DNA of 64,000 bases. Origin: Verrucomicrobiota bacterium (GTDB lineage: Bacteria; Verrucomicrobiota; Verrucomicrobiia; Limisphaerales; AAA164-E04). This document shows positions 7,268 through 27,117 of this stretch, piece after piece (the stretch's first letter is position 1; the number at the start of each line of letters is the position of its first letter). The DNA is taken from NCBI GenBank assembly GCA_047947115.1, contig CP170459.1:3488001-3552000 (forward strand), in the 5' to 3' direction. A program made the translations under genes and the position numbers. The notes under the pieces are model-generated. The model worked only from the letters and a program-made list of their open reading frames with translations. It searched no databases and was not told the origin of the DNA.

Positions 7268-8806
7268 ATGAAAAAACGGTTCTTTTGGGTGTTTCTGATG
7301 TGTTGGTGTTTTGTCGTGAAGTCTTTCGCAACGGATAAGAACTTCTACGGCATTCGAGCGGTGGATGCTCAAACCAAACGTGGAGTTCCATTGATAGCAT
7401 TAAAGACCGTGCACCATGTTTCTTATTGGACGGATAGCTTGGGGTATGTGGTGGTGGACGAACCCGGGTGGTATGATCGGGAGGTTTACTTTTATGTGAG
7501 CGGTGATGGATATGAGGTGGCCACGGATGGCTTCGGATATCAAGGAGTGCGCCTGAAACCCAGGGCTGGTCAAATCGATGAAATCGTCGTCCGACGCACT
7601 CAATTGGCTGAGAGGATGTATCGCATCACGGGTGCGGACAAATATCGAAATGCGCAGTTGCTGGGGATTGATTTGCCTTATGAGAGTTCATGGCCGGATG
7701 GAAATGTGGTCGGCCAGGATTCCGCCCAGGCAAAGGTTTATAATGATCGCATATATTGGTTCTGGGGAGATACGTCGATTTTTCGATATCCTTTGGGCAA
7801 TTTTAGAACTGCAGGGGCTTATTCCCTGAAATCCGGGCAAGGTGGTCTTTCACCGGCTCAAGGGATTTTGTTGAACTATTTCGTTGACGAAAACGGAACG
7901 AACGCCGGGATGTGTCCGATGCCTCCGAATGGAAATCTGATTTGGATCGATGGATTACTGGTGGTGAAAGATGCAAATGGTAAAGAAAGAATGGTGGCGC
8001 ACTATTCCAAGCGAAAATCATTGTCGGAACAAATGGAACATGGCCTGGTTGTTTTTGATGATACGACCCAGCGATTCGGGTTGTTGAAAACATTCGAACA
8101 GGAAAATACTTGGCAACATCCCCGAGGGCATCCGATACGTGTTGCTTTTCCCGAGGGTGATTTCTTTGTTTTCGGAGATGTATACTATCACATCCGTGTG
8201 CCGGCTGATTGGGAAGCTGTTCAGGATCCAAACCAATATGAAAGTTTCGGACCGGACGATAGTGGTTCGTTGCATCTTCAATGGCGAAAAGGCAAACCGC
8301 CTCTGACGGTGAAACAAGAGCGAGCAGGCATTGATTCAGCTTCCATGCCTGAGGGCGACGCCTGGTTGCAGCCGAAGGATGTGATGACAGGGATGCCCAT
8401 CGTTCTCCACCGTGGCTCCGTTCGGTGGAACAAGCATCGTCAAATGTATATCATGATTGCCAATCAGATCGGTGGTGACTCCATGTTGGGTGAGGTTTGG
8501 TATGGAGAAGCCTCACGCCCGGAAGGTCCATGGCAAAAGGTAATCAAGGTGGCAAGTCACGCAGACTATTCCTACTACAATCCAGTGCACCGTGAATTCT
8601 TCGATCAGGAAGGCGGACGGATGATTTACTTTGAAGGCACCTACGTGACGACCTTCTCAGGAAATGAGCATCCCGTGCCACGTTACGATTATAATCAATT
8701 GATGTATCGCCTGGATCTGGATCATCCGGGTTTGGCCGATGTGCGACAGGCCTATGACGAGCGAGGCCAGAATGGTCGGGGTGTCACTTGCTCTCCGGCT
8801 GAATGA
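7268..8806 (+). CDS. Secreted hypothetical protein, probable beta-propeller/glycosidase-like (PVC-type)
   Basis: 512-aa ORF with signal peptide and motifs GQDS...IYWFWGDT, SYYNPVH, IYFEGTY, RYDYNQLMYRLDL. Its 3' end overlaps the convergent gene by 23 bp. Confidence 0.7.
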   Translation: MKKRFFWVFLMCWCFVVKSFATDKNFYGIRAVDAQTKRGVPLIALKTVHHVSYWTDSLGYVVVDEPGWYDREVYFYVSGDGYEVATDGFGYQGVRLKPRAGQIDEIVVRRTQLAERMYRITGADKYRNAQLLGIDLPYESSWPDGNVVGQDSAQAKVYNDRIYWFWGDTSIFRYPLGNFRTAGAYSLKSGQGGLSPAQGILLNYFVDENGTNAGMCPMPPNGNLIWIDGLLVVKDANGKERMVAHYSKRKSLSEQMEHGLVVFDDTTQRFGLLKTFEQENTWQHPRGHPIRVAFPEGDFFVFGDVYYHIRVPADWEAVQDPNQYESFGPDDSGSLHLQWRKGKPPLTVKQERAGIDSASMPEGDAWLQPKDVMTGMPIVLHRGSVRWNKHRQMYIMIANQIGGDSMLGEVWYGEASRPEGPWQKVIKVASHADYSYYNPVHREFFDQEGGRMIYFEGTYVTTFSGNEHPVPRYDYNQLMYRLDLDHPGLADVRQAYDERGQNGRGVTCSPAE

Positions 8807-11800
8807 TCTGAAGCGGGTTGGTGAAGCGATCGTTTGTGATTTGGGAAAGTGTTCCGTCCGGCCATCGTACGTCAACTTGCTGTAATTTGTCTGGTGACGT
8901 GGCAAACAGAGTCGGGGAAGATTGGCTGAGGTAGCCGTTTCCGGCATAGATTTCGCGAACTTCTGTTTTTCCGGAAGTGTGCCGGATGGTGATGCGTGAT
9001 CCAATGCCATGCTGATTTCCCGGTCTGCCCAGGAGCCGGATGCCGAGTGGTTGCGATCCGTAAACGGCCTGGTTGATGAATGCCAACAAACGATCGTTGT
9101 TCTGGGTGGCGACCAGATCAGGCCAACCATCCGCATTCAAATCCGTAATCGCAAGACCCTTTCCATCGCCACCGACTTGAAAGCCGGTTTGTTCGAAATC
9201 CTGGATTTGAAAAACTCCATTGGAATCAAATACGCCAGAAAAACCAATGCCGCCGCGCCATAAACCGGTTTCGGGTTCCCGGGTGTAGAAGTTTTGAACG
9301 CCATAGTAGTCGAGTTGACCGTTTCCATCAAAATCGGACACCACGGTTCCATAGCCAGGCGAGGCTTGAATCAACCGAGGAAAGGCTTTCCAATCAAACG
9401 AACCCTTGCCGCCATTGATGAGGATGCCCGACTCGAAATGATTGGCCAAATACTGCCGGGCTGAATTGAGTTGGTTCACCGGGTAGATCTCATTGAGTTT
9501 TGACGATGCAAATTGACGAAAAGTCGGAAACTTCTCTCTCAACCAGGGCATGACCCCTCCTGCAAAACTCAAGCCACGAACAGGAAGGTATCCTTGGTCT
9601 CCTTTGTGAACCTCGATCAGGAAAGGGCGATTGGTTTGATCCATCGCACCATAAAGCAGGATGGCGGGATTGTTTTGACTGGCTGTTTGATACTTCGTGT
9701 TCAAACCGACGTTCATGACCACATAATCCATGTCGCCGTCTTTGTCCACATCCGCGCCGTTGATGACGTTCCACCAACCCAGGCGCCCGGAAAGCTTTCG
9801 GTTTTCGGTTTCGTCCGCCAGTTTGCCGTTGTGGTTTGCAAAGCATTTCACTGGTCCCCATTCAAGTGTGAGCATCAGGTCGAGGGTTCCGTTGGAATCC
9901 GTGTCCGTCCAAAGCGCCGAGGTGACCATTCCGACGGACCGAAGGCCGGGGGCAATTGTGTCCGTGACATCTACGAAGCGTCCACCTTCGTTCCTCAGTA
10001 ACCGGCTTTCCGGAGTGGTCGGGTAATGGGCTGGAACGACGCGTCCTCCGATGAACAGATCCAGATCTCCATCGGCATCAAAATCTGCAGCGACTGCGGG
10101 GCCGCTCGAGATTGGTTTTTGGGGGAGCACCTCTTCAGGAGCCACGGTAAATTTGCCTTTCCCGTCATTCAGGTAAAGCCGATCATTCAAGACGGGATCT
10201 CCCGGGTTGCATTCCACACCGCCACTGGAGACGAACAAGTCAAGATCTCCGTCCAGATCTACATCCAGCCACAAGGGCGCCATGTCTTCGTGGCGTTGGT
10301 GGGAGTTGAAAATGATTTGATTATCAGTGTCTTTTTCAAAATGTCCCGGGCTTATCTGGATAAAAAGAGCTCCGGGCTGTCCGGATGCACCCGCCAGATA
10401 GACGTCTTCGTCTCCGTCACCGTCCACATCTCCCCAGGCCATGCCTCCCCCGAGTTGCGAATGTTTGGACGGTAATAAAGGCTGACGTTGCCGGTCTTCA
10501 AAAATCGTCTCCTGATGTTTGAAATCGAGACCGATCTGCCGGCTCATTTCGATGAAGCGTTTTCGAGGCCTTTCTGTCGTTGGAGCGGCTTGTCGGGTGG
10601 TGGTTTCTTCAATGGTGTAACGCAGGTTTGTTTGCAGGTTGGTGAAAACCTGCTGAACGCCGCTGGGCCAGTTGACGGTCAATTTGCTGATAGTCTTCTC
10701 ATTTCCCAGTCCAAAATGCAGACTTGGTTCGTTGCTGGCCAGGAAACCTGTCATGGGATTGAGCTGTCGAATCTGAGTGCCCAGCTTTTCACTCTCCACA
10801 TGAACAACGGCCCCCAGGCCATACCGATTACTTGGAGTTCCTTTCAGTCGAATGGTGATACGGTTTCCGGAATGGCTGTTGTTTCTGTAAATGCCGACGG
10901 GTTCATTGAGGTCTGCGGTCACCAGGTCCAGGTCGCCGTCCCCATCGAGGTCTCCATAGGCTGCCCCATAACTCATGCCCATATGATCCAGACCCCATGC
11001 TTTGCTGGTATCTTTAAAGATCAGGTCTCCATGGTTTTTAAAAGCGAAATTCTGTTCCCTGAGAGGCGGTGTGTCTTTCCAAAGGTCCCATTCGGTTTTT
11101 CCTATCAGCATGGAAAGTGATATGGGCATGTCGGCGTCGGTTGACATGCGGGATGCGCCGTTGGTGGTGAACACGTCAACCCGGCCATCGTTGTCAAAAT
11201 CCGCCAACTTGATGGCCCAGGTCCAGTCGGTCGCTGCCAGGTTTGCCATGAATGCGACTTCCATGAACCGATCGGTTCCAGTATTCAGGTAAAGCGTGTT
11301 GTGCGATGTTTGACGTGGCCAGACATTTTCCAGAAACCACCGGCGATCGCCCATTTCGCCATTGCTGATGTGCCATTTGTAATGTGTGGTGGCCATCATA
11401 TCCGCACTCATGAAATCAAGCCGCCCGTCGTTGTTCAGATCGGCACAGTCAGCACCCATGGAAGACCAGGTCGTGTAAGGCATCACATCGGCAATGACAT
11501 CTGTGAAAGTCCCGTCGCCATTGTTGCGGTAAAGATGATCCGGATCCGTGAAATCATTGCCTACATAGAGGTCGATTTTGCCATCCGAGTTGTAATCCCA
11601 CCATGTAGCCGAAAAACCGTGACCGTTTTCTGTGATGCCTGCCTGGACGCTGACATCGGTGAACGTGCCGTCCCCGTTATTGCGAAACAAACGGTCAGGG
11701 CGTCCGCAGGTATCCGCAGTGTAGCTGTTGGGACCGGTCTGGCGCAGGTGATAATACTTTTCGTGCTCCGCTAGGATGTAGGGGCGGCCGTTTTTAAATC

Positions 11801-12521
11801 CAACGGGCGGTTTTTGGGGGCGGCCGCCGGGACGAACATACCGATAGGTCAACACAAAGACATCCAGATCACCGTCATTGTCGTAATCGGCAAAAGTCGG
11901 AAAGATACTGGCATCTACCATGTCCAGACCGCAGGCAGCGGCAGATTCGGTGAATGGTTTCCCTGCGCCCTGATTGATGAAAAGTTGATTGGGGGCGTCA
12001 TAATTGCAGACATAGATATCCAGATCTCCATCGTTATCGATGTCTGCCATGGCCGTTCCCGCTCCCCATCGATCCTCACCCGATGTGTTGGATGCTTCGG
12101 TCATGTCCTTGAACTTAAAAGGTGTCTCCTGAATGTAGAGTCGATTGGATTCAGGTGCGTTGACAAGGTAAAGGTCGGGTTTTCCATCACCATTGACATC
12201 GCCGATTGCGATTCCTCCGCATACGGAGCCTGCGTAATTCAGGTAGCTCTTGGGATGGTCCAGGATCATGTTGTTGGAGAAATGCACGCCGGTGTCATCT
12301 GGCAGTAATCGTTCGAACAATGTGGCGGCAGAGATTTTTTGCGACCGGGGTGACAGGGGGGCTTGATGGATTGTGCCATTTGACATGTCCGCAGATTGCA
12401 TGGAACTCACTGCAAGACAGCATCCAAACAGAACCCCTGCGACGAAGAACCAGTCAACCAAGCAAGAACGTTCCCCGGTGGGGAGGGGCGTGAGATGCTG
12501 CCTGGTCAAATGAAGATTCAT
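8784..12521 (-). CDS. CRTAC1/ASPIC-UnbV family protein with two FG-GAP/VCBS + ASPIC modules
   Basis: Many DxDxDGDLD repeats; two ASPIC-type segments (GTPSNRYGLGAVV...GFLASNEPSLHFGLG and GNQHGIGSRITI...GYLSQSSPTLF). The ORF-track start at 12650 lies inside the repeat array, so ATG 12521 was chosen; the start is uncertain. Confidence 0.85.
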   Translation of the reverse strand: MNLHLTRQHLTPLPTGERSCLVDWFFVAGVLFGCCLAVSSMQSADMSNGTIHQAPLSPRSQKISAATLFERLLPDDTGVHFSNNMILDHPKSYLNYAGSVCGGIAIGDVNGDGKPDLYLVNAPESNRLYIQETPFKFKDMTEASNTSGEDRWGAGTAMADIDNDGDLDIYVCNYDAPNQLFINQGAGKPFTESAAACGLDMVDASIFPTFADYDNDGDLDVFVLTYRYVRPGGRPQKPPVGFKNGRPYILAEHEKYYHLRQTGPNSYTADTCGRPDRLFRNNGDGTFTDVSVQAGITENGHGFSATWWDYNSDGKIDLYVGNDFTDPDHLYRNNGDGTFTDVIADVMPYTTWSSMGADCADLNNDGRLDFMSADMMATTHYKWHISNGEMGDRRWFLENVWPRQTSHNTLYLNTGTDRFMEVAFMANLAATDWTWAIKLADFDNDGRVDVFTTNGASRMSTDADMPISLSMLIGKTEWDLWKDTPPLREQNFAFKNHGDLIFKDTSKAWGLDHMGMSYGAAYGDLDGDGDLDLVTADLNEPVGIYRNNSHSGNRITIRLKGTPSNRYGLGAVVHVESEKLGTQIRQLNPMTGFLASNEPSLHFGLGNEKTISKLTVNWPSGVQQVFTNLQTNLRYTIEETTTRQAAPTTERPRKRFIEMSRQIGLDFKHQETIFEDRQRQPLLPSKHSQLGGGMAWGDVDGDGDEDVYLAGASGQPGALFIQISPGHFEKDTDNQIIFNSHQRHEDMAPLWLDVDLDGDLDLFVSSGGVECNPGDPVLNDRLYLNDGKGKFTVAPEEVLPQKPISSGPAVAADFDADGDLDLFIGGRVVPAHYPTTPESRLLRNEGGRFVDVTDTIAPGLRSVGMVTSALWTDTDSNGTLDLMLTLEWGPVKCFANHNGKLADETENRKLSGRLGWWNVINGADVDKDGDMDYVVMNVGLNTKYQTASQNNPAILLYGAMDQTNRPFLIEVHKGDQGYLPVRGLSFAGGVMPWLREKFPTFRQFASSKLNEIYPVNQLNSARQYLANHFESGILINGGKGSFDWKAFPRLIQASPGYGTVVSDFDGNGQLDYYGVQNFYTREPETGLWRGGIGFSGVFDSNGVFQIQDFEQTGFQVGGDGKGLAITDLNADGWPDLVATQNNDRLLAFINQAVYGSQPLGIRLLGRPGNQHGIGSRITIRHTSGKTEVREIYAGNGYLSQSSPTLFATSPDKLQQVDVRWPDGTLSQITNDRFTNPLQIIQPESK

Positions 12522-12590
12522 GATCTGGTCCGCGTATTTTATGGAGAGCATCAAGTGCAACAAGGATTTTCCGGTCAAGTCCAAGAAATT

Positions 12591-13853
12591 GGAGGGTCCA
12601 GCGCCTGCTTGAACCCACTTCGGACCTTGTGGCGTTTGAGGGCCGGTCATTGTTCCGTGGAAAAGCTGTTGGCGATCGAATCGCTGTGGTCTGCCCGCGT
12701 TCCGGTTGCTTTGCTCAGGGGGGAGGTAAAGGGGTAAGTATGGGAACGGGGTGGCACCCGTCCCTCCGTTGTAAACAATGGAGGGTCAAGCGCCTGCTTG
12801 AACCCACTTCGGACCTTGTGGCGTTTGAGGGCCGGTCATTGTTCGGTGGAAAAGCTGTTGACGATCGAATCGCTGTGGTCTGCCCGCGTTCCGGTTGCTC
12901 TGCTCAGGCGGGTGGTAAAGGGGTAAGTATGGGAACGGGGTGGCACCCGTCCCTCCGTTGTAAACAATGGAGGGGCAAGCGCCTGCTTGAACCCACTTCG
13001 GACCTTGTGGCGTTTGAGGGCCGGTCATTGTTCGGTGGAAAAGCTGTTGACGATCGAATCGCTGTGGTCTGCCCGCATTCCGGTTGCTTTGCTCAGGGGG
13101 GAGGTAAAGGGGTAAGTATGGGAACGGGGTGGCACCCGTCCCTCCGTTGTAAACAATGGAGGGGCAAGCGCCTGCTTGAACCCACTTCGGACCTTGGGGC
13201 GTTTGAGGGCCGGTCATTGTTCAGTGGAAAAGCTGTTGGCGATCGAATCGCTGTGTGCTGCCAGCGTTCCGGTTGCTTTGCTCAGGGGGGAGATAAAGGG
13301 GTAAGTATGGGAACGGGGTGGCACCCGTCCCTCCGTTGTAAACAATGGAGGGGCAAGCGCCTGCTTGAACCCACTTCGGACCTTGTGGCGTTTGAGGGCC
13401 GGTCATTGTTCCGTGGAAAAGCTGTTGGCGATCGAATCGCTGTGGTCTGCCCGCGTTCCGGTTGCTTTGCTTAGGGGGGCGTAAAGGGGCAAGTATGGGA
13501 ACGGGGTGGCACCCGTCCCTCCGTTGTAAACAATGGTGGGTCAAGCGCCTGCTTGAACCCACTTCGGACCTTGGGGCGTTTGAGGGCCGGTCATTGTTCT
13601 GAGGAAAAGCTGTTGGCGATCGAATCGCTGTGGTCTGCCCGCGTTCCGGTTGCTTTGCTCAGGGGGGTGGTAAAGGGGTAAGTATGGGAACGGGGTGGCA
13701 CCCGTCCCGCCGTTGTAAACAATGGAGGGGCAAGCGCCTGCTTGAACCCACTTCGGACCTTGGGGCATTTGAGGGCCGGTCATTGTTCGGTGGAAAAGCT
13801 GTTGCCGATCGAATCGCCGTGGTCTGCCCGCATTCCGCTTGGCGTTGCTCAGG
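12591..13853. repeat. Tandem array, 189-bp period, 6 full + 1 partial copies of a REP-doublet (BIME/REPIN-like) element
   Basis: Unit starts at 12591, 12780, 12969, 13158, 13347, 13535 and 13724 (one period is 188). Each unit is a 177-bp GGAG...CTCC element plus the 12-bp linker GTTGTAAACAAT. Copies differ only by scattered substitutions. Confidence 0.95.
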
Positions 13854-17078: not shown

Positions 17079-20000
17079 TCAGGGCTGCATTGCAGGCAGT
17101 GTGAATGCCCTTTTCTGGCGATATCCATTCACTCGTTGCTGGATCTGTGTGGTTTGCTGGCTTCCGGATGGAAGATGTTGCAATGCTCTTTGGGCTGTTC
17201 GTATGGCCAGATCAAATTGACCATCGGCTGCATAGGCCGCGGCGAGGACATCCAATGTTTCCGGCGCCTGGTTTCCGGTTTGCTCGCATGCCTTCCTGGC
17301 AAGCTGAATGGCTTGAGAGGGGCTCAACAGTTCCGGCTCCGGAGCAGTTGCCAACAGCCATCCCAAAGCAGCGGTGGCTCTCAAATGTTCCGCATCCATC
17401 TCCAGAACCCGGCGATAGTCGGCCATCGCAGATTTGAACCGTCCCGAGGACTGGAAAAACATGGCTCTCGCGTATGGGTGTTCGGTGTCGTGTGGCGCGA
17501 GTCTGATGGCTTCGTTGAATAATTCTTCCGCCAAGGAAACATCAGAGGTCGAGGCTTCCATTGCCGCATTTCTGCAGAGAAGGGATGCCCTTTCTTTTTC
17601 GCCTGGATGGATCAGCTCTACCTTGGCCAGGTAGTCGGCCAAATCGGAAAAGCGTTTCTTTTCTCCCAGGATGGTTGCCAGAGCCAAATGGTCGGGAGGA
17701 TAGGGTTCCACATACCATCTGCCTGCATAGGGAACCGCGTGCTGCCGGTCATGACCTTGGCGGAAAAGTGTTTGGGTGTCTGTGGTCAGGGTGTCCAATG
17801 TCGGGCTGCCTTCGTAAAATGCCAGCAATCTGTTTTCTTCATCGAGCAGGAGGGAGCAGGGGATGGACCAGGTCCATTGTCTGCCAAGGATGGTTTCACG
17901 CGCGGCATCTGCAATTTCCATCAATGAAGAGGTTGCCAACCCGCTGTTCAGGGTCCAGTTTTGGCGGCGCCACATGCGCTGCACGGTGCTCATTCGCTCA
18001 GGCGACGGTTTGTTCAGGTCATCCAGGTTCAGCGGTAAAATATCCAATCCCTGCTTGGACAGGTTTTCTTGATGCCGGTTGAGCTGGGTGAGTTCCTGGA
18101 CGCATGGCAGACACCAGGTCGCCCACAGGACGATCAACTTCCTTCGGCCAGTGGCGGTTAACTGTTTGTCAGTCCCTTCTTTATCCACGTAAGAAATCGT
18201 TGGCAAGGGCAAGGGACTGTGAGGAATCATTCTACTGACTTTTGGTGCGGGCAAATCCGGGGCTTTGGACGGTATCAGGTTCTGCCGGATTCGGGGCGAG
18301 CCCAGCGAGGTGGGTTCAGCCTCGTTTTGAGTCAGTTGCAGGAGCGTTGCGTTTGCCGGAGGTGTCCAGGATTGGTTCCGACCATTGGGCCAGCGCACTT
18401 TGATGGTTGATACGGAGCCGTCCGTCCCCAGGCCGAAATGCAGGCTCTGGCTGGACTGTGCCAGGTAACCTTCACCGGCCCTCAAAGTGCGCACCTGACG
18501 TTGCCCGGCAGCATCAACAACCTCGACTCTTGATCCGATTCCATGCCGGTTGCCATTGAGACTTTGCAATTGGATGCGGAGGGATTTTGCTGCCGAATGA
18601 TTGTCGTTTCGAAGAAATCTAAGCCGAGGTGCAGTGCGCTGAGTGATCCAGAGATCCAGATCTCCGTCATGATCCCAATCGACCAGAGCCATGCCCCGGC
18701 CGTCCGCAGGGGAATCAAATCCGGTCAAGGCAGACACCCCCGCAAATCTTCCATCCCGGGTGTTCAGAAAGGCGACGTTGCGTTCGTTTCCGCTCCAGTT
18801 ATGCCCGCTTTCGACCAGATCGGCGGTGGCTTCCCATGCGGCGAGGTAGCCGTCGGCCGAGTTTTCGGTCTGGTTGTTGGTGGGGGCTTCCTCCGGTGAT
18901 TGCGACGTGACCCGCCGCCAGAAGAAACTTCACAAATCCCCGGTATCGGGCGTACCGGTGACCATTCCATTTGCCACAATCAGGTCCTCCCACCCATCAT
19001 TATTGAAGTCGACAAAATTTGAACTCCATGCCCAGCGTCCGAGAGTGACACCCGCTTCCTCGCTGACATCCAGAAAGGTTCCGTCCCCCTGGTTTGAAAA
19101 CAGGCTGTTTCCTCTGGCGTGTCGTTGAAACCCGGATGCATCCTGTCCGTCGCGGTAACGGCGCTGAAATGCGATGCGATTGCCCGCCGAGGAGAACATG
19201 TTTCCCACATAGAGGTCCATCCAGCCGTCGCGGTTGAAATCCCCCCAACTCACCGACATGCCCGCTGACAAATCTTCCACGCCTGCTTGTGCGGCGATGT
19301 CGGTGAAGTGACCTCCGTCATTGCGATACAAATTGTTTCTTCCAAAATCATTGGCAACGTACAAATCAGGATCCCCGTCATTATCAAAATCCTCCCAAGA
19401 AGCGGCGTAGCTGAATCGTTGGTTGTTCTGATTCAATCCTGTTTCGGTCGTGACATCGTCAAACTGCCATCGCCGGTTTCGAAGCAGGAAGTTCTGCACG
19501 CCATTGTTTGCGTCGTGGTAGGGCATGGGGCGTCCCAGACCTAACCGGTCTCCGGATCGATCATAGTAGCCGCACAAAAAAACGTCCAGCAGACCGTCCA
19601 CGTCATAATCGATGGCTGAGATTGAGCGTATGATGGAGTTCGAAGAGAATTGAGTGCGTCGTTCGAAATGTCCCGTTCCATCATTGGCAAAGAACAGGAC
19701 ATGGCGACCGGATGCCATGACCAGATCCAGATCTAGATCATTGTCCAGATCCACCAGCAGCGCGCTGGCGGTGGGTTCCAGATAATCCAGCCCTGCTTCC
19801 GCTGACGCATCCAGGACGGTACCATCTTTGTTTTGCATCAGCAGTCGATTGGGCAGGCCTCCAGGTTCGCAGACGTAAAGATCTTCCAATCCATCCCCGT
19901 TGACATCGCCGACGGCCAGTCCGTGGGGGCCGGTGACGTCCAGCGTGAAACGCCAGTCCAAATGCTTTCGCCAATGATCGATGCCTCGGAGCAGTGGATC

Positions 20001-20825
20001 CTCCGAATCAGGTGTCCACCCCATGACCGATGCCGTGCAGTCGGCAAACCATGGCGTGTTCCGGTGCGGGGACGTGACTTCCTCATAATCCAGCACTCTG
20101 AGTTCGGTTAAAAGCGGTAGGCCTCCCGGTTTTTTCGCCTGCACCCAGGTACATTCCCAGGTTGCATGCTGCTGCAACGTCACACCGTTTCCGTGACCGT
20201 GAGATTCAACGATCACCACCGTCGTGCTGGTAACCTGGTCCACCGCCACTCGAACGGTTTTGAAATGCATGTCAAAATGCAGGAAAGGAGAATTGTCCGA
20301 TACGTTTATGGGAGATGTCAACTGGATCAACGCCTGTGTGAATCCCGATTGGTTTTGGAAAGCTTTCGGGGCATCGGATGGTTGATTTCTCCGATGCCGC
20401 CAAACTTTGAGCGTGCCATCGTCGAAGCTGAGGGCTTGAGGAGAGGGGCGCAAGGCATCTCCGCTGAAACTGTCGTTGATCATATCGGCCAGGTGCTCCT
20501 GCAGGGCCCGGTTGCCTGCGTGCATGGCCTTGTTCATCTGTTTGAACTGGATGCCTGTTGCGTCGTTGATGACTTCGGTCACCCAGCCATCTGCTCTGGG
20601 GTCGAGGTGCTCCATTTCCCGCGCCACTTCGGGTGCGACCTTCGATTCCGTCAATCCCAGAATTGGAATCGAAGTTTCGCTGACAGGTGACTCCGCTGCC
20701 TTTGCACGAAGGTTGCCAGATCCAATCAACAGGCAGCAAACGAGGGCAAATAGTAACCTGCCCCAGGGCATCCGTGTTTCAGCATGACGGTTCTGATGGA
20801 GGATACTTCTATGGGATTTGTTCAT
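17079..20825 (-). CDS. Putative selenoprotein: FG-GAP/CRTAC1-ASPIC + TlpA-like thioredoxin (WCLPC) + TPR, with in-frame TGA at 18932-18930
   Basis: ORFs 18930-20825 and 17079-18737 are in the same frame. The 64 codons between them are open and read ...DTGDL*SFFWRRVTSQSP...GHNWSGNERNVAFLNTRDGRFAGVSALTGFD, continuing the FG-GAP propeller. A SECIS-like hairpin follows the TGA directly. Confidence 0.8.
18886..18929 (-). promoter_or_regulatory. Bacterial SECIS-like element
   Basis: UGA-AGUUUCUUCUG-GCGGCG-GGUCA-CGUCGC-AAUCAC-CGGAGGAAGC: 6-bp apical stem beginning after an 11-nt spacer, GGU-containing loop, and a 10-bp lower stem with 3 G-U pairs. Confidence 0.75.
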
Positions 20826-21141
20826 ATCTGGTGTGCGGGCATTCTACCGAGGTCTGCTTTTCATTCAAGTTCGAAACTTTACCCCCATGGCAAGGGGATA
20901 CTTGGGGTGGGGCGGGTGCTGATGGGGACTGACATTTCTTTGTTTGATGGATTTGGTCTTGAGGGTGATCCGGATAAAAGTGATTACAGAAATGAACTGA
21001 TCGCCCACTGTGGCTTAAACATGGACATTTTCTGGTAACCTTCAGTATGATTTTCTCATCACTAATCTAAGTATACTCGAATTCGGGGCAATCTGGATTC
21101 CCGTGAGGCAAGTGGCGGTTTATTTGGGTGGTGCATGTTAT

Positions 21142-22611
21142 ATGTTTGATAGTCAGAAAAATAGAGAGAACTTCGCAGGCCTGTTGACTTTACTGTGCGT
21201 TTTAAGCCTGGTGTCCGTTTTGGTGGGGCCGGGTTGTGTGCGTCCTGTGGGATCCCATATGGGACAACATGGGGTGCAAACGCCCGATCAGTTTGGGGGA
21301 CAAGGAGCTTCAGGTCCGGCGTTTGAAGATGGATGGATTACTGATTTTCAAGATGCCTCATTGGAAGCCCTCATCGAGGAGGCGCTGGAGCGCAATTACA
21401 ATCTCCAGGCCGCTGCTGCCCGGTTGGAAGCGGCTCACGCCTCTTTTCAATCCGCCAATGCCGGTTGGAAACCCACTCTCAATCTGAGTCAAAGCGATTC
21501 TCGTAGCAAGACCGTGTTCAATCCGTTTGCCGGTGAATTGCAGAGCCGTTATATCAATCGGTTCGACCTTGGTGTCAACCTGTCCTGGGAGCTGGATATC
21601 TGGGGGCGACTTCGCAGTCAAAGCCGTGCCGCGTTTGCGGATCTGGAAGCGGCTGAAACCATTTACATGTCCGCCTACTTGTCGCTTGCGGCCAATACGG
21701 CGGCCGCCTGGTTCAATCTCATTGAATCGGAATTGCAGGTTAAGTTGAACGAGGAAACATTGGAGAGTTTTGAAGCGAACCTTCAGGTGGTGGAAGAGTC
21801 CTTTAGACGAGGCATCCCAAACCGGGCGCTTGATGTGCGTTTGACCCGCGCCAACGTTGAAAGCGCGCGCAGCAATCTGGCTGTGCGAAAGCGCCAGCGC
21901 GATGCAGCCAAACGTTCTCTTGAGACGATTCTTGGAAGGTATCCGTCGGCGGAAATGGAAGTGAGTCATGCTTTGCCGGTGATCCGTCATGCGGTGCCCA
22001 CGGGTTTGCCTTCCGAATTATTGCTGCGGCGGCCTGATATCCTGACTGCCGAGCGTCAGCTTGCTGCTGCAACGGAACGTCTCAAAGCTTCGCGTCGAAG
22101 TCTGTTGCCATCCATTCGGTTGACATCATCCGCCGGAACAACGAGCAATGAACTTGCGGATCTGCTCGATCCGGAGCGCTTGGCAATATCTTTGGCAGGG
22201 TCCATTTCTCAACCGCTCTACCAGGGGGGACGTTTGCGTGCCAATATTCGTTTGTCGGATGCCCGGGTGAAGGAATCCATGGCCCAGTTTTCGCAGACCG
22301 TCCTGACCGCCTTTCAGGAGGTTGAAACATTACTGGCTGCCGAACATTTTTTACAGGAACAGGAAGCGGCCCTCCGTGCCAGTGCGACCGAATCCATGGA
22401 AGCCGAGCAGCTTGCCAAGGAACAGTATGAGCGGGGATTGGTGGACATCATCACCGTTCTGGAATCCGAAAGACGGGCTTTCAACGCGCGCAGTTCCTTG
22501 TTGAACCTGTCCAATTTACTTTTGCAGAACCGGCTCGACCTGTATCTGGCTCTCGGCGGACATTTCTCTCCTGAGCGTCCTGTCGATGCCACCGAGGAAA
22601 AAGAGCATTAA
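21142..22611 (+). CDS. RND efflux outer-membrane factor lipoprotein (NodT/OprM/TolC family)
   Basis: Lipobox-like LVGPGC, LIEEALERNYNL, SWELDIWGRLR, GLPSELLLRRPDI, LYLALGG. Start at 21103 or 21142. Confidence 0.92.
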   Translation: MFDSQKNRENFAGLLTLLCVLSLVSVLVGPGCVRPVGSHMGQHGVQTPDQFGGQGASGPAFEDGWITDFQDASLEALIEEALERNYNLQAAAARLEAAHASFQSANAGWKPTLNLSQSDSRSKTVFNPFAGELQSRYINRFDLGVNLSWELDIWGRLRSQSRAAFADLEAAETIYMSAYLSLAANTAAAWFNLIESELQVKLNEETLESFEANLQVVEESFRRGIPNRALDVRLTRANVESARSNLAVRKRQRDAAKRSLETILGRYPSAEMEVSHALPVIRHAVPTGLPSELLLRRPDILTAERQLAAATERLKASRRSLLPSIRLTSSAGTTSNELADLLDPERLAISLAGSISQPLYQGGRLRANIRLSDARVKESMAQFSQTVLTAFQEVETLLAAEHFLQEQEAALRASATESMEAEQLAKEQYERGLVDIITVLESERRAFNARSSLLNLSNLLLQNRLDLYLALGGHFSPERPVDATEEKEH

Positions 22612-22639
22612 TCACCTTTAAGAACGACCATTTAGTGAC

Positions 22640-23923
22640 ATGCAGAAATTATTGAAATGGGTTGCCCCGGCCGTGTTTCTGATGCTGTGCATCGGCATTG
22701 CTTCAATCCTGATGGCGACCAAACCCGAACCGCAGCGACGGATCCCACCGACTCCCGTTCCCACAGTGAATGCCATGCGGCTGGCGAAACAGACTTTTCA
22801 GGTCATTGTTCCGTCCCAGGGTGTTGTGCAGGCTAGAACCCGCAGCTCACTGATTCCCCAGGTGAGCGGAGAGATTACCTGGATCTCTGAAAGTTTCAGG
22901 TCGGGTGGTTTTTTCAAGCCGGAAGAAGAACTTGTAAAGATCGATCCACGTGATTATGAGACCGCCTTAGTGGTGGCCAAGGCGACCCTGGCCCAGCGCG
23001 CCAGCGCCTACGAGGTTGAAAAGGCCCAGCATGAACAGGCCAAGGTTAATTGGGGGCGACTCGGAAATGGAGAAAAAGCCTCGGCGCTCGTTCTGCGGGA
23101 ACCTCAACTCGCCGAAGCCAAGGCCCTGATGGAATCCGCAGCCGCCAACGTTGAGCGGGCTGAACGTGATCTGGAACGGACCGTGATCAAAGCGCCCTAC
23201 GAAGGTCGCATCATGGAGAAGAACGTCGATGTGGGGCAGACCGTCTCGCCGGGAACCACCCTTGCCGAAATCTTTGCCACGGATTATGTGGAAATCCGAT
23301 TGCCCCTGAGGAATGAGCATCTTGATTTTGTCGATCTGCCCGAAATGTTCAGGGATTTGAAGCCGCAAGAATCATTGCTCCGGCCGGCCGTGCGATTGAC
23401 GGGGCAATACGGCAGCAGGGATGTGACATGGAACGGACGGGTGGTCCGCACTCAAAGTGCCTTCGATGCCCGGAGCCGGGAACTGTTCGTGATCGCTCAG
23501 GTTGATGACCCTTATGGAAAAGTCGACGAGGAACATCCGCCGCTCAAGATCAACCAGTATGTGCGTGCGGAAATTCAGGGTGACCAGTTGGAGGATGTTT
23601 TTGTGGTCCCGAGGGCTGCATTGAGGAACAACGACGAAGTGGTTTTGATTGGAAAAGACAACAAGATCATCCGTCGAGCGGTGGAAGTGATCTGGAGACA
23701 GGGGGAGCAGGTGGTGATCAGGGATGGTGTTACGGAAGGCGAAGTGTTGTGCCTGTCCTCATTGCTGTTTGCCGCCGACGGGGCCGAAGTGAGGCCTGTG
23801 ATTGAGGGGGAACCGGTCATGATGCCGGACGGCAAGGGCAATCGGGTTCGTCAGGGAAAAACGGAGGAAGGCAAACCCGGTAACGCAAGTCAAACGCAAG
23901 CAAATCAAACAAAGGAACCCTGA
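22640..23923 (+). CDS. RND efflux periplasmic adaptor (membrane fusion protein)
   Basis: N-terminal TM, PQVSGEI, LERTVIKAPYEGRI...VDVGQTVSPG lipoyl halves, VVPRAAL. Confidence 0.92.
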   Translation: MQKLLKWVAPAVFLMLCIGIASILMATKPEPQRRIPPTPVPTVNAMRLAKQTFQVIVPSQGVVQARTRSSLIPQVSGEITWISESFRSGGFFKPEEELVKIDPRDYETALVVAKATLAQRASAYEVEKAQHEQAKVNWGRLGNGEKASALVLREPQLAEAKALMESAAANVERAERDLERTVIKAPYEGRIMEKNVDVGQTVSPGTTLAEIFATDYVEIRLPLRNEHLDFVDLPEMFRDLKPQESLLRPAVRLTGQYGSRDVTWNGRVVRTQSAFDARSRELFVIAQVDDPYGKVDEEHPPLKINQYVRAEIQGDQLEDVFVVPRAALRNNDEVVLIGKDNKIIRRAVEVIWRQGEQVVIRDGVTEGEVLCLSSLLFAADGAEVRPVIEGEPVMMPDGKGNRVRQGKTEEGKPGNASQTQANQTKEP

Positions 23924-26900
23924 TGCATGGCATGATCGCATGGTTCGCGCGCAATGGCGTGGCGGCAAATTTATTGATGGTTGCCATTCTTTTGGCGGGC
24001 GTGAACACGCTTTTCAAACGGATGCCGACCGAGGTGTTTCCTGAATTTGAACTGGACATGATCACTGTGTCCGTGCCTTACCGGGGATCAACGCCTGCCG
24101 AAGTGGAAGAATCGATCGTGATCAAAATCGAGGAAGCCATCCAGGATATTCAGGGAATCAAAAAGATCACCTCCACCGCATCGGAAGGTGCCGGATCGGT
24201 CACGATTGAAGTGGACAAGGGATATGATTCGCGTGAGTTGCTGGACGACATCAAGAATCGGGTGGATTCCATCAACACCTTTCCGGCAGAAACCGAAAAA
24301 CCGATCATCAACCTGGCGCAGCCCCGAGGCGAAGTGATCACTGTCGTTCTGGCGGCGGACATGCATGAGAAGGACCTTCGGGTGTTGGGAGAACAGGTTC
24401 GGGATGAAATATCCAATTTACCCAACATCACCCAGGTCGCTCTGCAAGCTGTCAGGCCTTACGAAATTGCGATCGAAGTGTCCGAACAAACCTTGCAACG
24501 GTATGGGCTCACGCTGGAAGGCATTGCCCAGGCGGTGCGTTCGACATCCATTGATCTGCCGGCCGGCGCGATCAAAACCGAAGGAGGCGAGATTTTGCTG
24601 CGCACCAAGGGGCAGGCTTATGAAGGAAGCGAATTTGCCGACATTGTATTGTTGACCCGAAACGATGGCACGCGCATTACCTTGGGAGACATTTCGAACA
24701 TCAACGACGGGTTTGAGGAAACACCGCTCTTTGCGCGCTGGAATGGCAAGCCCTGCGTGATGATCGCCGTGGCACGTGTCGGGGATCAGAACGCCATTGA
24801 TCTGGCCAATACGGTCAAGGATTACCTCACCGAGCGACAAAAGAGTTTGCCGGACGGAGTGGATTTGGATTTTTGGAACGACCGCTCCCAGATTGTCATC
24901 GGGCGTTTGAATACACTGCTTACCAGTGCGCTGCAGGGTGGTTTTTTGGTTTTTCTGGTGCTTGCCTTGTTTCTGCGGTTGTCTCTTGCGATTTGGGTGT
25001 GTGTCGGCATACCCGTTGCGTTCATGGGGGCCATTGCCTTCATGCCTCAGCTTGGTGTGACCATCAATATCATCAGCCTTTTCGGATTCATTCTCGTGCT
25101 GGGTATTGTCGTGGATGATGCCATTGTGACCGGAGAAAACATTTTCAGCCACTTGCAACATGGGGACGATCCCACCAATGCGGCGGTGACGGGGACGCAG
25201 GAGGTGTCGGTGCCGGTGGTCTTCGGTGTGTTGACCACGGTGGCGGCATTCACCCCCATCATGATGATTGACGGGTTTCGCGGGAAGATATTTGCCCAGA
25301 TACCGCTGGTTGTCATTCCGGTGCTTTTATTCTCACTGGTGGAATCGAAACTGATTCTTCCCGCTCATTTGAAACATATGCGGATTCGCAATCGTGATCG
25401 GAGCAAGTTGGGTTTTTTGACCCGTTTTCAGCGTGTTTTTGCCGATGGTATGGAAGCGTTTGCACGAAATGTATATCGGCCTGTTCTGGCTTTGGCGATG
25501 AAGTATCGCTATCTGACCTTGTCCGGTTTTATCGGGATTTGCCTGGTTCTATTCACATTACTGGTCAGTAACCGCATGATATTCGTGTTTTTTCCACGTG
25601 TTCCGACCGAACGGATCACAGTTCGATTGACGATGCCGCAGGGGACGCCCTCCGAAGTGACCCAGGGGCATGTGAACCACATTTTGGCCAAAGCTCGTGC
25701 ATTGCAGGTGAGAGAGGATTACAAGGAGCCTTCGACCGGTGAAAGCGTGATTGAAAACATCTTGGATGTCGTGGGGGCGTCGGGTTTCACCGGGGGCAGG
25801 GGGCGGAGTTCTGGACAGACCAACGTCGGTGAAGTGGCAATGAACATCACCGAGGCCGAAAGTCGCCAGAATCCATTGACGAGTCAGGACATTGTCGGGG
25901 AATGGCGCCAGTTGATCGGTTTGATCCCGGGGGCTCAGGAACTTAGTTTCCGGGCGGAAATTGGTCGTGCGAGTGATCCGATCGACATCCAGTTGACCGG
26001 TCCCAGTTTTAATGATTTGCAACTGGCAACCGAGGAGGTCAAGGAGCGCCTGGGGCAATACCCGGATCTTTTTGATATCATGGACACGTTTCAGGATGGC
26101 AAACCCGAGCTGAAAATGAAGATCAAACCGGAAGCGGAAATGCTTGGTTTGAGCATGACAGACCTGGCTCGCCAACTCAGGCAATCCTTTTTTGGCAGCG
26201 AAGCTCAGCGTATCCAGCGCGGACGCGAAGACGTGCGTGTGATGGTTCGTTACCCGTTGGATGAGCGTTCTTCTTTGGCCAACCTGGAATCGATGCGGGT
26301 TCGCACGCCCCAGGGCCAGGAAGTGCCGTTTTCCGCCGTTGCCAATGTCGAGCAGGGACGCAGTTTTTCATCCATCACCCGTATCGACAGGAACCGCACC
26401 ATTCGTGTGACGGCGGATGCCGACAAGGAAAAGGCGAATTTGCAGGTCATCCAGGAGGATATCATCAAGTTCATGCCCGAAATTGTCGCCAAATTCCATG
26501 GAATGAGCTTTTCTCTCGAAGGTGAAGCCCGCGAACAGGAGGAATCCTTTGCCAGCGTCTGGTTGGGATCGATCTTTGTCATCTTCACCATCTACTCGCT
26601 GCTGGCCATCCCGTTCAGATCTTATGTTCAGCCCTTGATTGTCATGTCGGTGATACCATTTGGAATAGGGGGAGCAATTGTCGGTCATTTGGTCATGGGG
26701 CATCATCTCAGCATCATGAGCGTTTTTGGGATGCTGGCTTTGTCCGGCGTGGTGGTGAACGACAGTCTGGTGCTGGTGGATTACATCAACCGCAAGCGGC
26801 GTGAAGGTGTTGATCTGCATGATGCGGTGAGCAATGCCGGTGTTGCCCGGTTCAGGGCGATCATGCTGACTTCCTTTACAACCTTTGCCGGGTTGATTCC

Positions 26901-27117
26901 GATCATGTGGGAAAAGAGCACCCAGGCACAGTTTTTGATCCCGATGGCCATTTCATTGGGTTGGGGAATTTTGTTTGCCACTTTTATCACCCTGTTGCTG
27001 GTCCCGATCAATTACCTGCTGCTTGAGGATATCCAGCGGGGAGCCCGCCGATATTTTCGGTGGCAGTTTGGCCTGAAACCCGAAGATTCCAAGTCCGTCA
27101 AATCTGCTCATGCTTAA
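23923..27117 (+). CDS. RND efflux permease (AcrB/AcrD/AcrF family)
   Basis: 1064 aa; WFARNGVAANLLM, LGIVVDDAIVTGENI, GVVVNDSLVLVD, RFRAIMLTSFTT. Start overlaps the MFP stop. Confidence 0.95.
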   Translation: MHGMIAWFARNGVAANLLMVAILLAGVNTLFKRMPTEVFPEFELDMITVSVPYRGSTPAEVEESIVIKIEEAIQDIQGIKKITSTASEGAGSVTIEVDKGYDSRELLDDIKNRVDSINTFPAETEKPIINLAQPRGEVITVVLAADMHEKDLRVLGEQVRDEISNLPNITQVALQAVRPYEIAIEVSEQTLQRYGLTLEGIAQAVRSTSIDLPAGAIKTEGGEILLRTKGQAYEGSEFADIVLLTRNDGTRITLGDISNINDGFEETPLFARWNGKPCVMIAVARVGDQNAIDLANTVKDYLTERQKSLPDGVDLDFWNDRSQIVIGRLNTLLTSALQGGFLVFLVLALFLRLSLAIWVCVGIPVAFMGAIAFMPQLGVTINIISLFGFILVLGIVVDDAIVTGENIFSHLQHGDDPTNAAVTGTQEVSVPVVFGVLTTVAAFTPIMMIDGFRGKIFAQIPLVVIPVLLFSLVESKLILPAHLKHMRIRNRDRSKLGFLTRFQRVFADGMEAFARNVYRPVLALAMKYRYLTLSGFIGICLVLFTLLVSNRMIFVFFPRVPTERITVRLTMPQGTPSEVTQGHVNHILAKARALQVREDYKEPSTGESVIENILDVVGASGFTGGRGRSSGQTNVGEVAMNITEAESRQNPLTSQDIVGEWRQLIGLIPGAQELSFRAEIGRASDPIDIQLTGPSFNDLQLATEEVKERLGQYPDLFDIMDTFQDGKPELKMKIKPEAEMLGLSMTDLARQLRQSFFGSEAQRIQRGREDVRVMVRYPLDERSSLANLESMRVRTPQGQEVPFSAVANVEQGRSFSSITRIDRNRTIRVTADADKEKANLQVIQEDIIKFMPEIVAKFHGMSFSLEGEAREQEESFASVWLGSIFVIFTIYSLLAIPFRSYVQPLIVMSVIPFGIGGAIVGHLVMGHHLSIMSVFGMLALSGVVVNDSLVLVDYINRKRREGVDLHDAVSNAGVARFRAIMLTSFTTFAGLIPIMWEKSTQAQFLIPMAISLGWGILFATFITLLLVPINYLLLEDIQRGARRYFRWQFGLKPEDSKSVKSAHA

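Follow-up and report, generated by a model that had tools for sequence, protein, structure and literature searches.

Two open reading frames on the minus strand of the window, by which we mean the whole 64,000-nucleotide stretch of DNA analysed, lie in the same frame between positions 20825 and 17079 and are joined by a lone TGA and 64 open codons, which raises the question of whether this TGA ends a gene or is decoded within one. The upstream frame (18930..20825, minus strand) comprises 631 codons from an ATG and the downstream frame (17079..18737, minus strand) 552 codons from a GTG, with the TGA (18930..18932, minus strand) at codon 632 in the context DTGDL*SFFWRRV, exactly as the initial annotation had described. 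We conclude, with a probability of about 0.9, that 20825..17079 is a single gene for a protein with an FG-GAP/ASPIC propeller, a TlpA-like CxxC domain and tetratricopeptide repeats (TPR), and that its UGA at codon 632 can be predicted to encode selenocysteine (Sec).

One gene annotated as two

When read through, the coding sequence (17079..20825, minus strand) runs for 1248 codons in one frame, with a single internal TGA, to a terminal TGA at 17081-17079, and Pfam domains of its 1248-aa product lie in the same frame on both sides of codon 632. The FG-GAP beta-propeller, at about residues 300-745 (18591..19928, minus strand; FG-GAP_3, PF13517, E 6.4e-41, five stretches), is interrupted by the Sec codon and is followed by an UnbV_ASPIC domain at residues 762-825 (18351..18542, minus strand; PF07593, E 6.2e-18), a TlpA/ResA-like redoxin domain at Pfam residues 874-957 (17955..18206, minus strand; Redoxin, PF08534, 1.9e-7), which contains the redox active site WCLPC with its two Cys at residues 904-908 (18102-18116, minus strand), and C-terminal TPR repeats at about residues 1080-1240 (17106..17588, minus strand; TPR_1, TPR_2, TPR_14). 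Both PF13517 and PF07593 exceed their gathering scores, which gives the CRTAC1/ASPIC-UnbV domain pair; PF08534 is likewise above its cut-off and, with the thioredoxin fold and CxxC, places the redoxin region with TlpA/ResA at domain level, whereas the full-length NCBIfam TlpA model reaches only 47.7 bits there (E 1.5e-12) against a cut-off of 230. The NCBIfam scan returned nothing at residue 632 and only sub-threshold thioredoxin-fold matches on the redoxin domain. Residues 1-44 (20694..20825, minus strand) carry the hydrophobic stretch LLFALVCCLLIGSG followed by AKA-AE, in which a signal peptide is predicted by eye from the translation, and on the strength of this N-terminus the protein is probably exported.

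The 64 codons that lie after the TGA and ahead of the downstream call's first start codon (18738..18929, minus strand; residues 633-696) encode a helix and a propeller blade, include WSGNERNVAFLN at residues 677-688, and hold residues that are nearly invariant in the family (W636, V639, P644, Y660, W664, G679, E681 and N688, each in at least 90% of 86 aligned homologues). In the AF2 model of residues 290-1010 (pLDDT 91.2, pTM 0.90), residue 632 is the first of a helix spanning 632-642 (pLDDT about 92 over the 10-residue block), another helix and strands follow (pLDDT mostly 84-96), and propeller strands flank residue 632 on both sides, so that a stop at this codon would indeed cut the propeller in two. 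With domains in frame across the TGA, conserved residues in the 64 codons and a propeller that spans codon 632, the proposal of one gene of about 1248 aa is supported.

The expectation that gene callers would split such a gene also proved right, as all 120 of the best short database matches end exactly at the Sec codon, in ...DL, and among full-length database entries none was found above 57% identity. A large, multi-phylum family is thus systematically mis-annotated as two genes, and since the databases break it at the Sec codon, errors follow for Planctomycetota, Verrucomicrobiota and related groups in genome annotation, in pangenome counts and in the size given for selenoproteomes.

A hairpin downstream of the UGA

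Beginning 11 nt after the UGA, the transcript can form a 6-bp apical stem (GCGGCG/CGUCGC) that closes the 5-nt loop GGUCA at 18912-18908 (18902..18918, minus strand), within an extended hairpin that includes a 10-bp lower stem (18886..18928, minus strand; MFE -22.1 kcal/mol). The window sequence therefore folds as had been claimed, with both stems, the loop and the 11-nt spacer in place. The fold of this single sequence is no better than chance (z = -0.94; 40 of 200 shuffles were equal or better), and for that reason support for the hairpin is taken from comparison and not from folding significance.

Comparison upheld the apical part of the proposed SECIS, but not its base. Of the 18 loci that were folded, only the window (L021) and a relative 93% identical to it (L033) show the 10-bp lower stem. 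The apical stem, on the other hand, is paired in 144/144 cells in 28 sequences and in 584/588 cells in 98 distinct sequences, a level that none of 500 shuffles reached, with compensatory changes at three of the six pairs (CG/AU, GC/AU and GU/AU/GC/CG). Sliding the partner strand out of register lowers pairing to 13-68%. The loop is GGUCR, its G and U being invariant in 99 sequences. Furthermore, stem pair 4 is G-U in 45 of the 98 distinct sequences and would be C-A on the opposite strand, which agrees with the earlier statement that the G-U pairs work on the coding strand only.

The published bSECIS model asks for an apical loop of 3-9 nt, an upper stem of 4-16 bp, a G within the first two positions of the loop, a distance of 16-37 nt between UGA and loop and an MFE of -7.5 kcal/mol or lower (PMC13188914, Fig 2 legend). 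Here the loop GGUCA has 5 nt and begins with G, the stem has 6 bp and the loop lies 17 nt from the UGA, all within these limits, and the MFE is -20.6 kcal/mol for 60 nt of the window and -10.4 kcal/mol for the apical hairpin alone in L036. Rfam models, run over the entire window at their gathering thresholds, gave no matches.

As a control, 74 homologues with an Asn codon at the site and the motif DLN-SFFWRQVV were compared over the six stem pairs; they pair in 222/444 cells (50%), and the complete set of six pairs is present in one of these sequences. Since pairing falls to half in these sequences, the hairpin is not a by-product of the peptide motif, and the element provides a clean natural example of RNA structure in a coding region constraining protein sequence.

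Conservation of the TGA

Homologues with an in-frame TGA inside a long open frame were found in 17 of 41 related genomes (27 matches, 48-100% identity), and the TGA falls in the same alignment column in 32/32 homologous loci of the 17. It occupies that column again in 80/80 of the best genome_contigs loci, which come from named MAGs and cover six or more groups of phylum rank, Verrucomicrobiota, Planctomycetota, Lentisphaeria and Acidobacteriota among them. Counts across the compared genomes are not independent, as these are related to one another. Homologues thus keep both TGA and hairpin, which was one of the checks that the initial annotation had proposed. The host genome itself holds a second TGA-containing gene of the same kind (C1:5559115-5559972).

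The TGA is not an assembly error. Independent contigs, assembled from a pair of DNA runs belonging to separate studies and from one RNA library, span 18600-19300 with no indels and are identical to the window at 18930-18932 and over the hairpin. The contig from the RNA library crosses codon 632, although RNA coverage does not show translation, and another RNA run (X15) has no contig over 18912-18983 and bears on neither side.

The residue at the Sec site and its possible role

At the column of residue 632, 109 aligned full-length homologues carry D (24), S (23), N (19), E (12), G (10), C (6), H (5), L (4), A (3), Q (2) and R (1), and none of the 109 carries Trp. Cys forms do exist, therefore, and both closest full-length homologues, P0009 (57% identity) and P0011 (53%), are among the six; the other 103 have mostly D, S, N, E or G. 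Because most full-length homologues lack Cys at the site, the residue is not essential to the basic function of the family. The rarity of Cys at the site is atypical for selenoproteins and bears on the origin of Sec sites.

The presence of a Sec site and a CxxC domain in one protein suggests redox chemistry. Tentatively, and at somewhat less than even odds, we propose that Sec632 acts as a redox nucleophile in an exported protein, with a thiol close by resolving its oxidised form. The fused WCxxC domain would provide this thiol in clades A-C; clade D, which is short and devoid of the redoxin domain, has U-x-C instead, and there this local thiol would take the same part.

That the CxxC domain could recycle the Sec, as was first suggested, found support of an indirect kind only. 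In clades A-C, all 25 Sec forms with a redoxin domain in their locus keep the motif [W/Y]CxxC, but in the clade that contains the 26 Sec forms of A-C (support 0.973), 16 of the 19 non-Sec members, which carry S, H, G, A, D, R or C at the site, keep it too, so that the link between CxxC and Sec is not specific. Covariation of CxxC with Sec (kept in U/C forms, lost in D/S/N/E forms) had at first been read as strong, and the tree showed it to be mostly the trait of one clade.

A rival account, itself doubtful and yet a serious contender, accepts the Sec as real and makes it a metal ligand or a helix-capping or otherwise structural residue, with the TlpA-like domain acting on some other substrate. 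Residues of the D, S, N, E and G type are classic helix N-cap residues, and those seen in the column (D, S, N, E, G, H and C) are of N-cap or metal-ligand types, which makes a structural role conceivable. Moreover, the retention of CxxC by 16 of 19 non-Sec clade members means that this motif serves some function independent of Sec, and His forms carry it as well (5/5). What speaks for a catalytic residue is that in each Sec form examined a thiol is available as candidate partner, be it in the fused CxxC or in the local UxC, and that the AF2 model puts Sec632 at the first residue of a helix, which is the position of the nucleophilic Cys or Sec in thiol oxidoreductases. Sec is also costly and nearly always catalytic in known cases (review PMC13188914, section 7).

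Returning to the redox reading, a more ambitious version of it, speculative and on the whole unlikely, would see here a new class of exported selenoenzymes. Sec would have been recruited on a CRTAC1-like propeller at a helix N-cap position where most relatives have Asn, Asp, Ser or Gly and not Cys, and the catalytic site would be wired to the fused TlpA-like CxxC or, in the shorter clade, to the local UxC. The SECIS within the frame would dictate part of the peptide that follows, with Ser at position +9 and a codon beginning with C at +10. The family, of which one genome often holds two or three paralogues, would rank among the most widespread selenoprotein families of Planctomycetota, Verrucomicrobiota and Lentisphaeria that are missing from catalogues.

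Decoding of the UGA

The machinery for Sec insertion is present in the host genome, with selA (462 bits) adjoining selB (302 bits), a Sec-type selD (398 bits) that has an in-frame TGA of its own, all three above curated cut-offs, and selC, detected by ARAGORN as a tRNA-SeC with anticodon tca and also scoring above the cut-off of the Rfam tRNA-Sec model. ARAGORN found no tRNA in the window. Among the 17 genomes with TGA forms, selA is above cut-off in 14 and partially matched in two, and among the 14 genomes without a selA match a TGA form occurs only in G019, which is 85% complete. By analogy with established bacterial Sec biology, SelB with its load of Sec-tRNA(Sec) would attach to the hairpin 11 nt past the UGA and so be held at the ribosome as the UGA enters the A site, with SelA, SelB, SelD and tRNA-Sec(UCA) supplied by the host genome. 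Judged from sequence comparison, UGA 632 is very likely read as selenocysteine, and each check from the initial annotation that was carried out points the same way.

TGA is an ordinary stop in the window, where it ends 11 of the 18 open frames of at least 400 codons, the present gene included, and is the commonest stop among them. It might thus be a true stop also at codon 632, leaving a 631-aa fragment and either a separately initiated C-terminal protein or a pseudogene, and the GTG 64 codons downstream and the annotation as a stop in the 120 short database entries would fit this account. We consider it very improbable, because the 64 codons, which contain no start codon, hold nearly invariant family residues and belong to one confidently predicted propeller, and because the TGA and a covarying hairpin are retained across phyla at 48-100% protein identity, which is not the behaviour of a pseudogene. 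Truly degraded copies (L047 and L075) look different, with many stops.

Reassignment of UGA to Trp in some Verrucomicrobiota is stated in the abstract of PMC13462651. Downstream hairpins can in general stimulate read-through. Decoding without selenium, as Trp or by hairpin-stimulated near-cognate insertion of Cys, Trp or Arg, nevertheless hardly deserves credence here, given that TGA terminates the long frames just mentioned, that only tRNA-Trp with anticodon cca was seen in three loci scanned with ARAGORN, that none of the 109 aligned homologues has Trp at the column, that the hairpin fits the SelB-type bSECIS model and that TGA forms are almost confined to genomes with selA.

Relation to known systems

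The proposed recoding resembles the SelB/bSECIS type of E. coli fdhF, whose element has a GGUC loop and 11-nt spacing, in its in-frame UGA, its short coding-region hairpin with the stem base 11 nt after the UGA, its small apical loop with G then U (here GGUCR) and the presence of selA-D. It differs in that the protein has no kinship with formate dehydrogenase and that the stem has only six conserved pairs.

CRTAC1/ASPIC proteins are abundant in these phyla and are also present in animals. Murine CRTAC1 (crystal structure 9etn) shares the FG-GAP and PF07593 pair and gave the best PDB sequence match (E 2.2e-17), and 9etn_A also ranks first by fold, with a Foldseek E of 1e-26 and a TM of 0.72 on the target, at an identity of only 18%; in contrast to the present protein, CRTAC1 is eukaryotic and extracellular and has no Sec, no fused redoxin domain and no TPR. 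The redoxin domain shares its fold and WCxxC with TlpA/ResA (PDB 1jfu, 4txo and 1st9; PDB E 4e-11 for 1jfu; Foldseek TM 0.64-0.78 on the targets), but is here one domain within a fusion of 1248 residues. A UGC-containing TlpA disulfide reductase is catalogued as a selenoprotein with a TlpA-like domain (PMC13188914); its Sec lies inside the TlpA redox motif, whereas here WCLPC is all-Cys and the Sec lies 272 residues upstream, in the propeller.

The initial annotation had placed the protein outside the classic bacterial selenoprotein families, and this is supported, although an earlier mention of the family exists. A 2026 catalogue of 119 prokaryotic families and subfamilies contains no FG-GAP, ASPIC, CRTAC1 or VCBS entry (PMC13188914, Table 1), the deep-Sep and BSepDB supplements gave no matches to the same terms, and a literature search for selenoproteins with FG-GAP, ASPIC, bacterial CRTAC1 or VCBS found nothing relevant. 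However, four ASPIC UnbV/FG-Gap selenoprotein candidates from planctomycetes P1 and P2, each annotated as two adjacent genes, had already been listed in 2016, with bSECISearch positive for three of the four and Gly at the aligned residue in the closest NCBI match (PMC4807772, Table S9); they appear only in this supplementary table, the main text mentioning neither 'ASPIC' nor 'FG-GAP'. The domain description and the split annotation are the same as here, and Gly is also seen among the present homologues, whereas Table S9 offers neither conservation nor covariation data and has no mention of a redoxin domain. These candidates almost certainly belong to the same family, matched by description since only IMG identifiers are given. 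With the present family, the list of selenoproteins gains a non-thioredoxin-fold, probably exported member of roughly 135 kDa.

The gene neighbourhood was examined and provided no functional lead; it comprises LamG/Ig/PA14 secreted proteins, a second FG-GAP/ASPIC gene without a TGA and a divergent RND efflux operon.

Gene structure and predicted selenocysteine

The feature is real. On the minus strand, an upstream ORF (18930..20825; 631 aa, ATG start) and a downstream ORF (17079..18737; 552 aa, GTG start) share a single frame and, as the initial annotation had proposed, translation of 20825..17079 meets just one internal stop, a TGA at 18932-18930 (codon 632, context DTGDL*SFFWRRV), followed by 64 open codons up to the GTG, WSGNERNVAFLN among them; the read-through frame itself terminates at a TGA. 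We predict, with a probability of about 0.9, that codon 632 of this CRTAC1-like propeller gene encodes selenocysteine (Sec) by way of a bSECIS of canonical type. As a decoding mechanism this is ordinary; what is new is the protein that hosts the Sec and the kind of site it occupies.

The 1248-aa read-through protein (P0001) begins with a hydrophobic stretch followed by AKA-AE, which, read by eye, is a predicted signal peptide. It carries FG-GAP repeats (PF13517, 6.4e-41), and domain searches placed a UnbV_ASPIC domain at residues 762-825 and TPR repeats at the C-terminus; a Redoxin/TlpA-like domain, with the active-site motif WCLPC at 904-908, occupies residues 874-957. An AlphaFold2 model of residues 290-1010, built with an 86-sequence alignment (pLDDT 91.2, pTM 0.90), has propeller strands on either side of residue 632, and therefore termination at the TGA would split the propeller domain. 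The best solved match was murine CRTAC1 (9etn_A; phmmer E 2.2e-17, Foldseek E 1e-26, TM 0.72 on target), and the redoxin domain matched the structures of TlpA (1jfu, 4txo) and ResA. No NCBIfam 20.0 model spans the Sec site of P0001.

Conservation of the in-frame TGA

The TGA is no assembly error, since positions 18600-19300 are spanned by contigs from two DNA runs of different studies and by one RNA-library contig, all with TGA and hairpin unchanged and no indels. When 41 related genomes, the organism's own among them, were searched in six frames, 27 matches at 48-100% identity were obtained, each with exactly one TGA inside a long open frame, which runs to about 1180-1380 codons if the contig covers the whole gene; the TGA was likewise present in five weaker matches. 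In all 32 excised loci it occupies the identical alignment column, and the same was true of the 80 best loci (80/80) of a species-genome collection, whose record titles name Verrucomicrobiota, Planctomycetota (Pirellulaceae, Planctomycetaceae, Phycisphaerae), Lentisphaeria, Acidobacteriota (Polarisedimenticolaceae, Thermoanaerobaculia, Terriglobia), Krumholzibacteriia and single otherwise-labelled bins.

The 32 loci fall into five clades, distinguished by the peptide around the Sec codon: clade A, to which the window gene belongs (DLU-SFFWRRVTSQSP; L021, L033-L042, L047, L075); clade A' (DLU-SFYWRRVASQTP; L043, L045, L070, L071); clade B (DLU-S[VL]YWRQVVSQSP; L022, L044, L046, L072, L073); clade C (DLU-MFFWRRVAP; L062-L066, L074); and the short clade D of about 840-860 aa (DGU-[PS]CLWQ[AV]VVSQP; L050, L067-L069, from genomes G039, G019 and G030), which is devoid of the redoxin and TPR parts. 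The organism's own genome holds a second, clade B copy (L022, C1:5559115-5559972; 60% identity, DLU-SVYWRQVVSQSP) that likewise has a TGA and a hairpin, and two or three TGA-form paralogues occur in several relatives (G003, G004, G006, G019, G030). Two decayed copies, L047 (G010:C42) and L075 (G003:C19), contain many stops, with at least three in-frame TGAs or a frame break, and still retain the Sec codon and the hairpin; they give a picture of what a genuine pseudogene looks like in this family.

Hairpin downstream of the UGA

The RNA 3' of the UGA folds into a 10-bp lower stem and a 6-bp apical stem closed by a GGUCA loop (MFE -22.1 kcal/mol), the apical stem beginning 11 nt after the UGA. 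Fold, loop and spacer are those of the initial annotation, but the lower stem it had included is limited to the window and one relative (L033), conservation being restricted to the apical stem. The 11-nt spacing and GGUC loop resemble the E. coli fdhF element, which we take to have both. By itself the window hairpin is not unusual (z = -0.94; 40 of 200 shuffles fold equally well).

Support for the hairpin comes from comparison between sequences. Among 28 relatives (24 distinct), apical-stem pairing was complete (144/144 cells) with compensatory changes at two of the six pairs, and fell to 17-65% when the partner was slid by 1-3 columns; in a larger set of 99 sequences (98 distinct) it reached 584/588 cells (99.3%), with compensatory changes at three of six pairs and a drop to 13-68% on sliding. 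None of 500 shuffles did as well in either set. The varying pairs in the larger set were CG:92/AU:6, AU:76/GC:22 and GU:45/AU:37/GC:10/CG:4/UG:1, and loop bases 2 (G) and 3 (U) were invariant in the 99 sequences. As read from the sequences, clade D has a separate 6-bp stem (GGCUGU/ACAGCC) located 3 nt further 3', with a compensatory CG-to-UA change in L069 (GGUUGU/ACAACC). The consensus bSECIS given in a 2026 review comprises a 3-9 nt loop, a 4-16 bp stem, a G among the first two bases of the loop, a UGA-to-loop distance of 16-37 nt and an MFE of at most -7.5 kcal/mol (PMC13188914); our element agrees with that consensus on all four structural counts (loop 5 nt, stem 6 bp, GG, UGA-to-loop 17 nt), and the apical hairpin of L036, a clade A locus, alone gives -10.4 kcal/mol.

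Conserved pairing could also arise from a conserved peptide motif, and homologues with Asn at the column served as controls. Among 80 metagenome loci of this form the region was located in 74, every one of which had an AAC or AAT codon at the column and encoded DLN-SFFWRQVV; pairing at the analogous positions amounted to 222/444 cells, and all six pairs were formed in a single locus (1/74). Since Asn forms with the same type of peptide pair poorly, the hairpin is no by-product of the peptide motif. The influence runs the other way. In Sec forms, position +9 is Ser (UCG) or Pro, and position +10 is taken by Q, R, H, P or L, residues with the C-initial codons that the hairpin needs (column 37 is C in 95/98 sequences); in homologues of the Asn form, the +10 residue is N, K, R or Y (columns 34-37 of alignment A3 hold these two codons). 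The RNA structure shapes the peptide and leaves an imprint visible in the protein sequence.

Selenocysteine machinery and genetic code

The organism, which occurs in estuary and seawater samples, has the full set of Sec genes in its genome: selA (462 bits) adjoining selB (302 bits), a tRNA-SeC with anticodon tca, and selD (398 bits; L010, C1:3992967-3993893). The latter contains one in-frame TGA and is predicted to be a Sec-type selenophosphate synthetase, therefore providing independent evidence that UGA is decoded as Sec in this organism. A selA match above the cut-off was present in 14 of the 17 genomes with the TGA form and a partial one in two more (G004, G022), leaving only G019 (85% complete) with a TGA form and no selA match; conversely, G019 is the only one of the 14 genomes devoid of a selA match to carry the TGA form. 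These genomes are kin, so that the co-occurrence is a consistency check rather than a statistic. In G022, the sole selA match is a 97-residue fragment (G022:C19:36542-36799); it shares a contig with that genome's TGA-form propeller gene and lies about 3 kb downstream of it.

A reassigned genetic code is excluded, since TGA acts as an ordinary stop for 11 of the 18 open frames of at least 400 codons in the window, and Trp, the residue that would have spoken against Sec, is found at the column in none of 109 aligned full-length homologues. In the window, an Rfam scan returned no match and ARAGORN no tRNA.

Relation to known selenoprotein families

The initial annotation had placed the protein outside the classic selenoprotein families; in agreement, FG-GAP, ASPIC, CRTAC1 and VCBS have no entry among the 119 prokaryotic families and subfamilies in Table 1 of the review (PMC13188914). 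The same terms are absent from the main text and supplement of deep-Sep (PMC12013277) and from those of BSepDB (PMC13326102), the latter supplement possibly incomplete, and full-text searches combining them with selenoprotein or selenocysteine yielded nothing relevant. The sole prior mention in these sources is a row of Table S9 in a 2016 PLoS One study, where four ASPIC/FG-GAP candidates, each annotated as two genes, are listed with Gly at the site in the closest hit and a positive bSECISearch for 3/4 (PMC4807772). Almost certainly, the family was thus flagged once, in a supplement and without analysis, and did not enter the catalogues as far as these cover it.

Gene callers split the gene, as had been anticipated: in a collection of 5.8 billion proteins, the 120 top-ranking hits with a length below 686 aa, at 67-100% identity, all stop at ...DL, exactly at the codon. 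The best full-length hit to the read-through protein is only 57% identical, and the read-through form is therefore unannotated. Very likely, this is a widespread family, essentially uncatalogued and universally mis-annotated.

Possible role of the selenocysteine

Helix 632-642 of the predicted model starts with Sec and lies in a 10-residue block of pLDDT about 92. Thioredoxin-fold enzymes place their nucleophilic Cys or Sec at a helix N-terminus, and D, S, N and G are usual helix N-cap residues. The 109 full-length homologues have D (24), S (23), N (19), E (12), G (10), C (6), H (5), L (4), A (3), Q (2) or R (1) at the column, Cys being found in the closest ones (P0009, 57%; P0011, 53%).

As for function, we can only infer: a redox relay from Sec to the CxxC of the redoxin domain is the most likely single mechanism, if at somewhat less than even odds, and its main rival is Sec as a metal ligand or structural residue. 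A [W/Y]CxxC motif is present in 25/25 Sec forms of clades A-C with the redoxin domain in the locus, and clade D, devoid of that domain, has U-x-C instead; where the column of a homologue holds a different residue, CxxC is kept in 20/100. With the Sec column masked, a phylogeny built on the propeller-ASPIC region groups the 26 clade A-C Sec forms in a single clade (support 0.973) together with 19 non-Sec members (C 3, H 5, S 5, A 2, G 2, D 1, R 1). Since 16 of these 19 retain CxxC, the motif is a trait of the clade and not of Sec.

The gene neighbourhood, with LamG/Ig/PA14 secreted proteins, an FG-GAP/ASPIC gene and an RND efflux operon, gave no functional lead. FG-GAP/ASPIC genes number dozens in the organism's genome (57 matches to the query region at E <= 0.001), and one of them, a 1288-aa paralogue with eight FG-GAP stretches, two UnbV_ASPIC domains and no in-frame TGA, lies 4.4 kb downstream of the selenoprotein gene (8784-12650, minus strand). 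Directly upstream and divergent is the RND efflux set (21103-27117, plus strand), composed of an outer-membrane factor, a HlyD-type adaptor and an AcrB-type pump.
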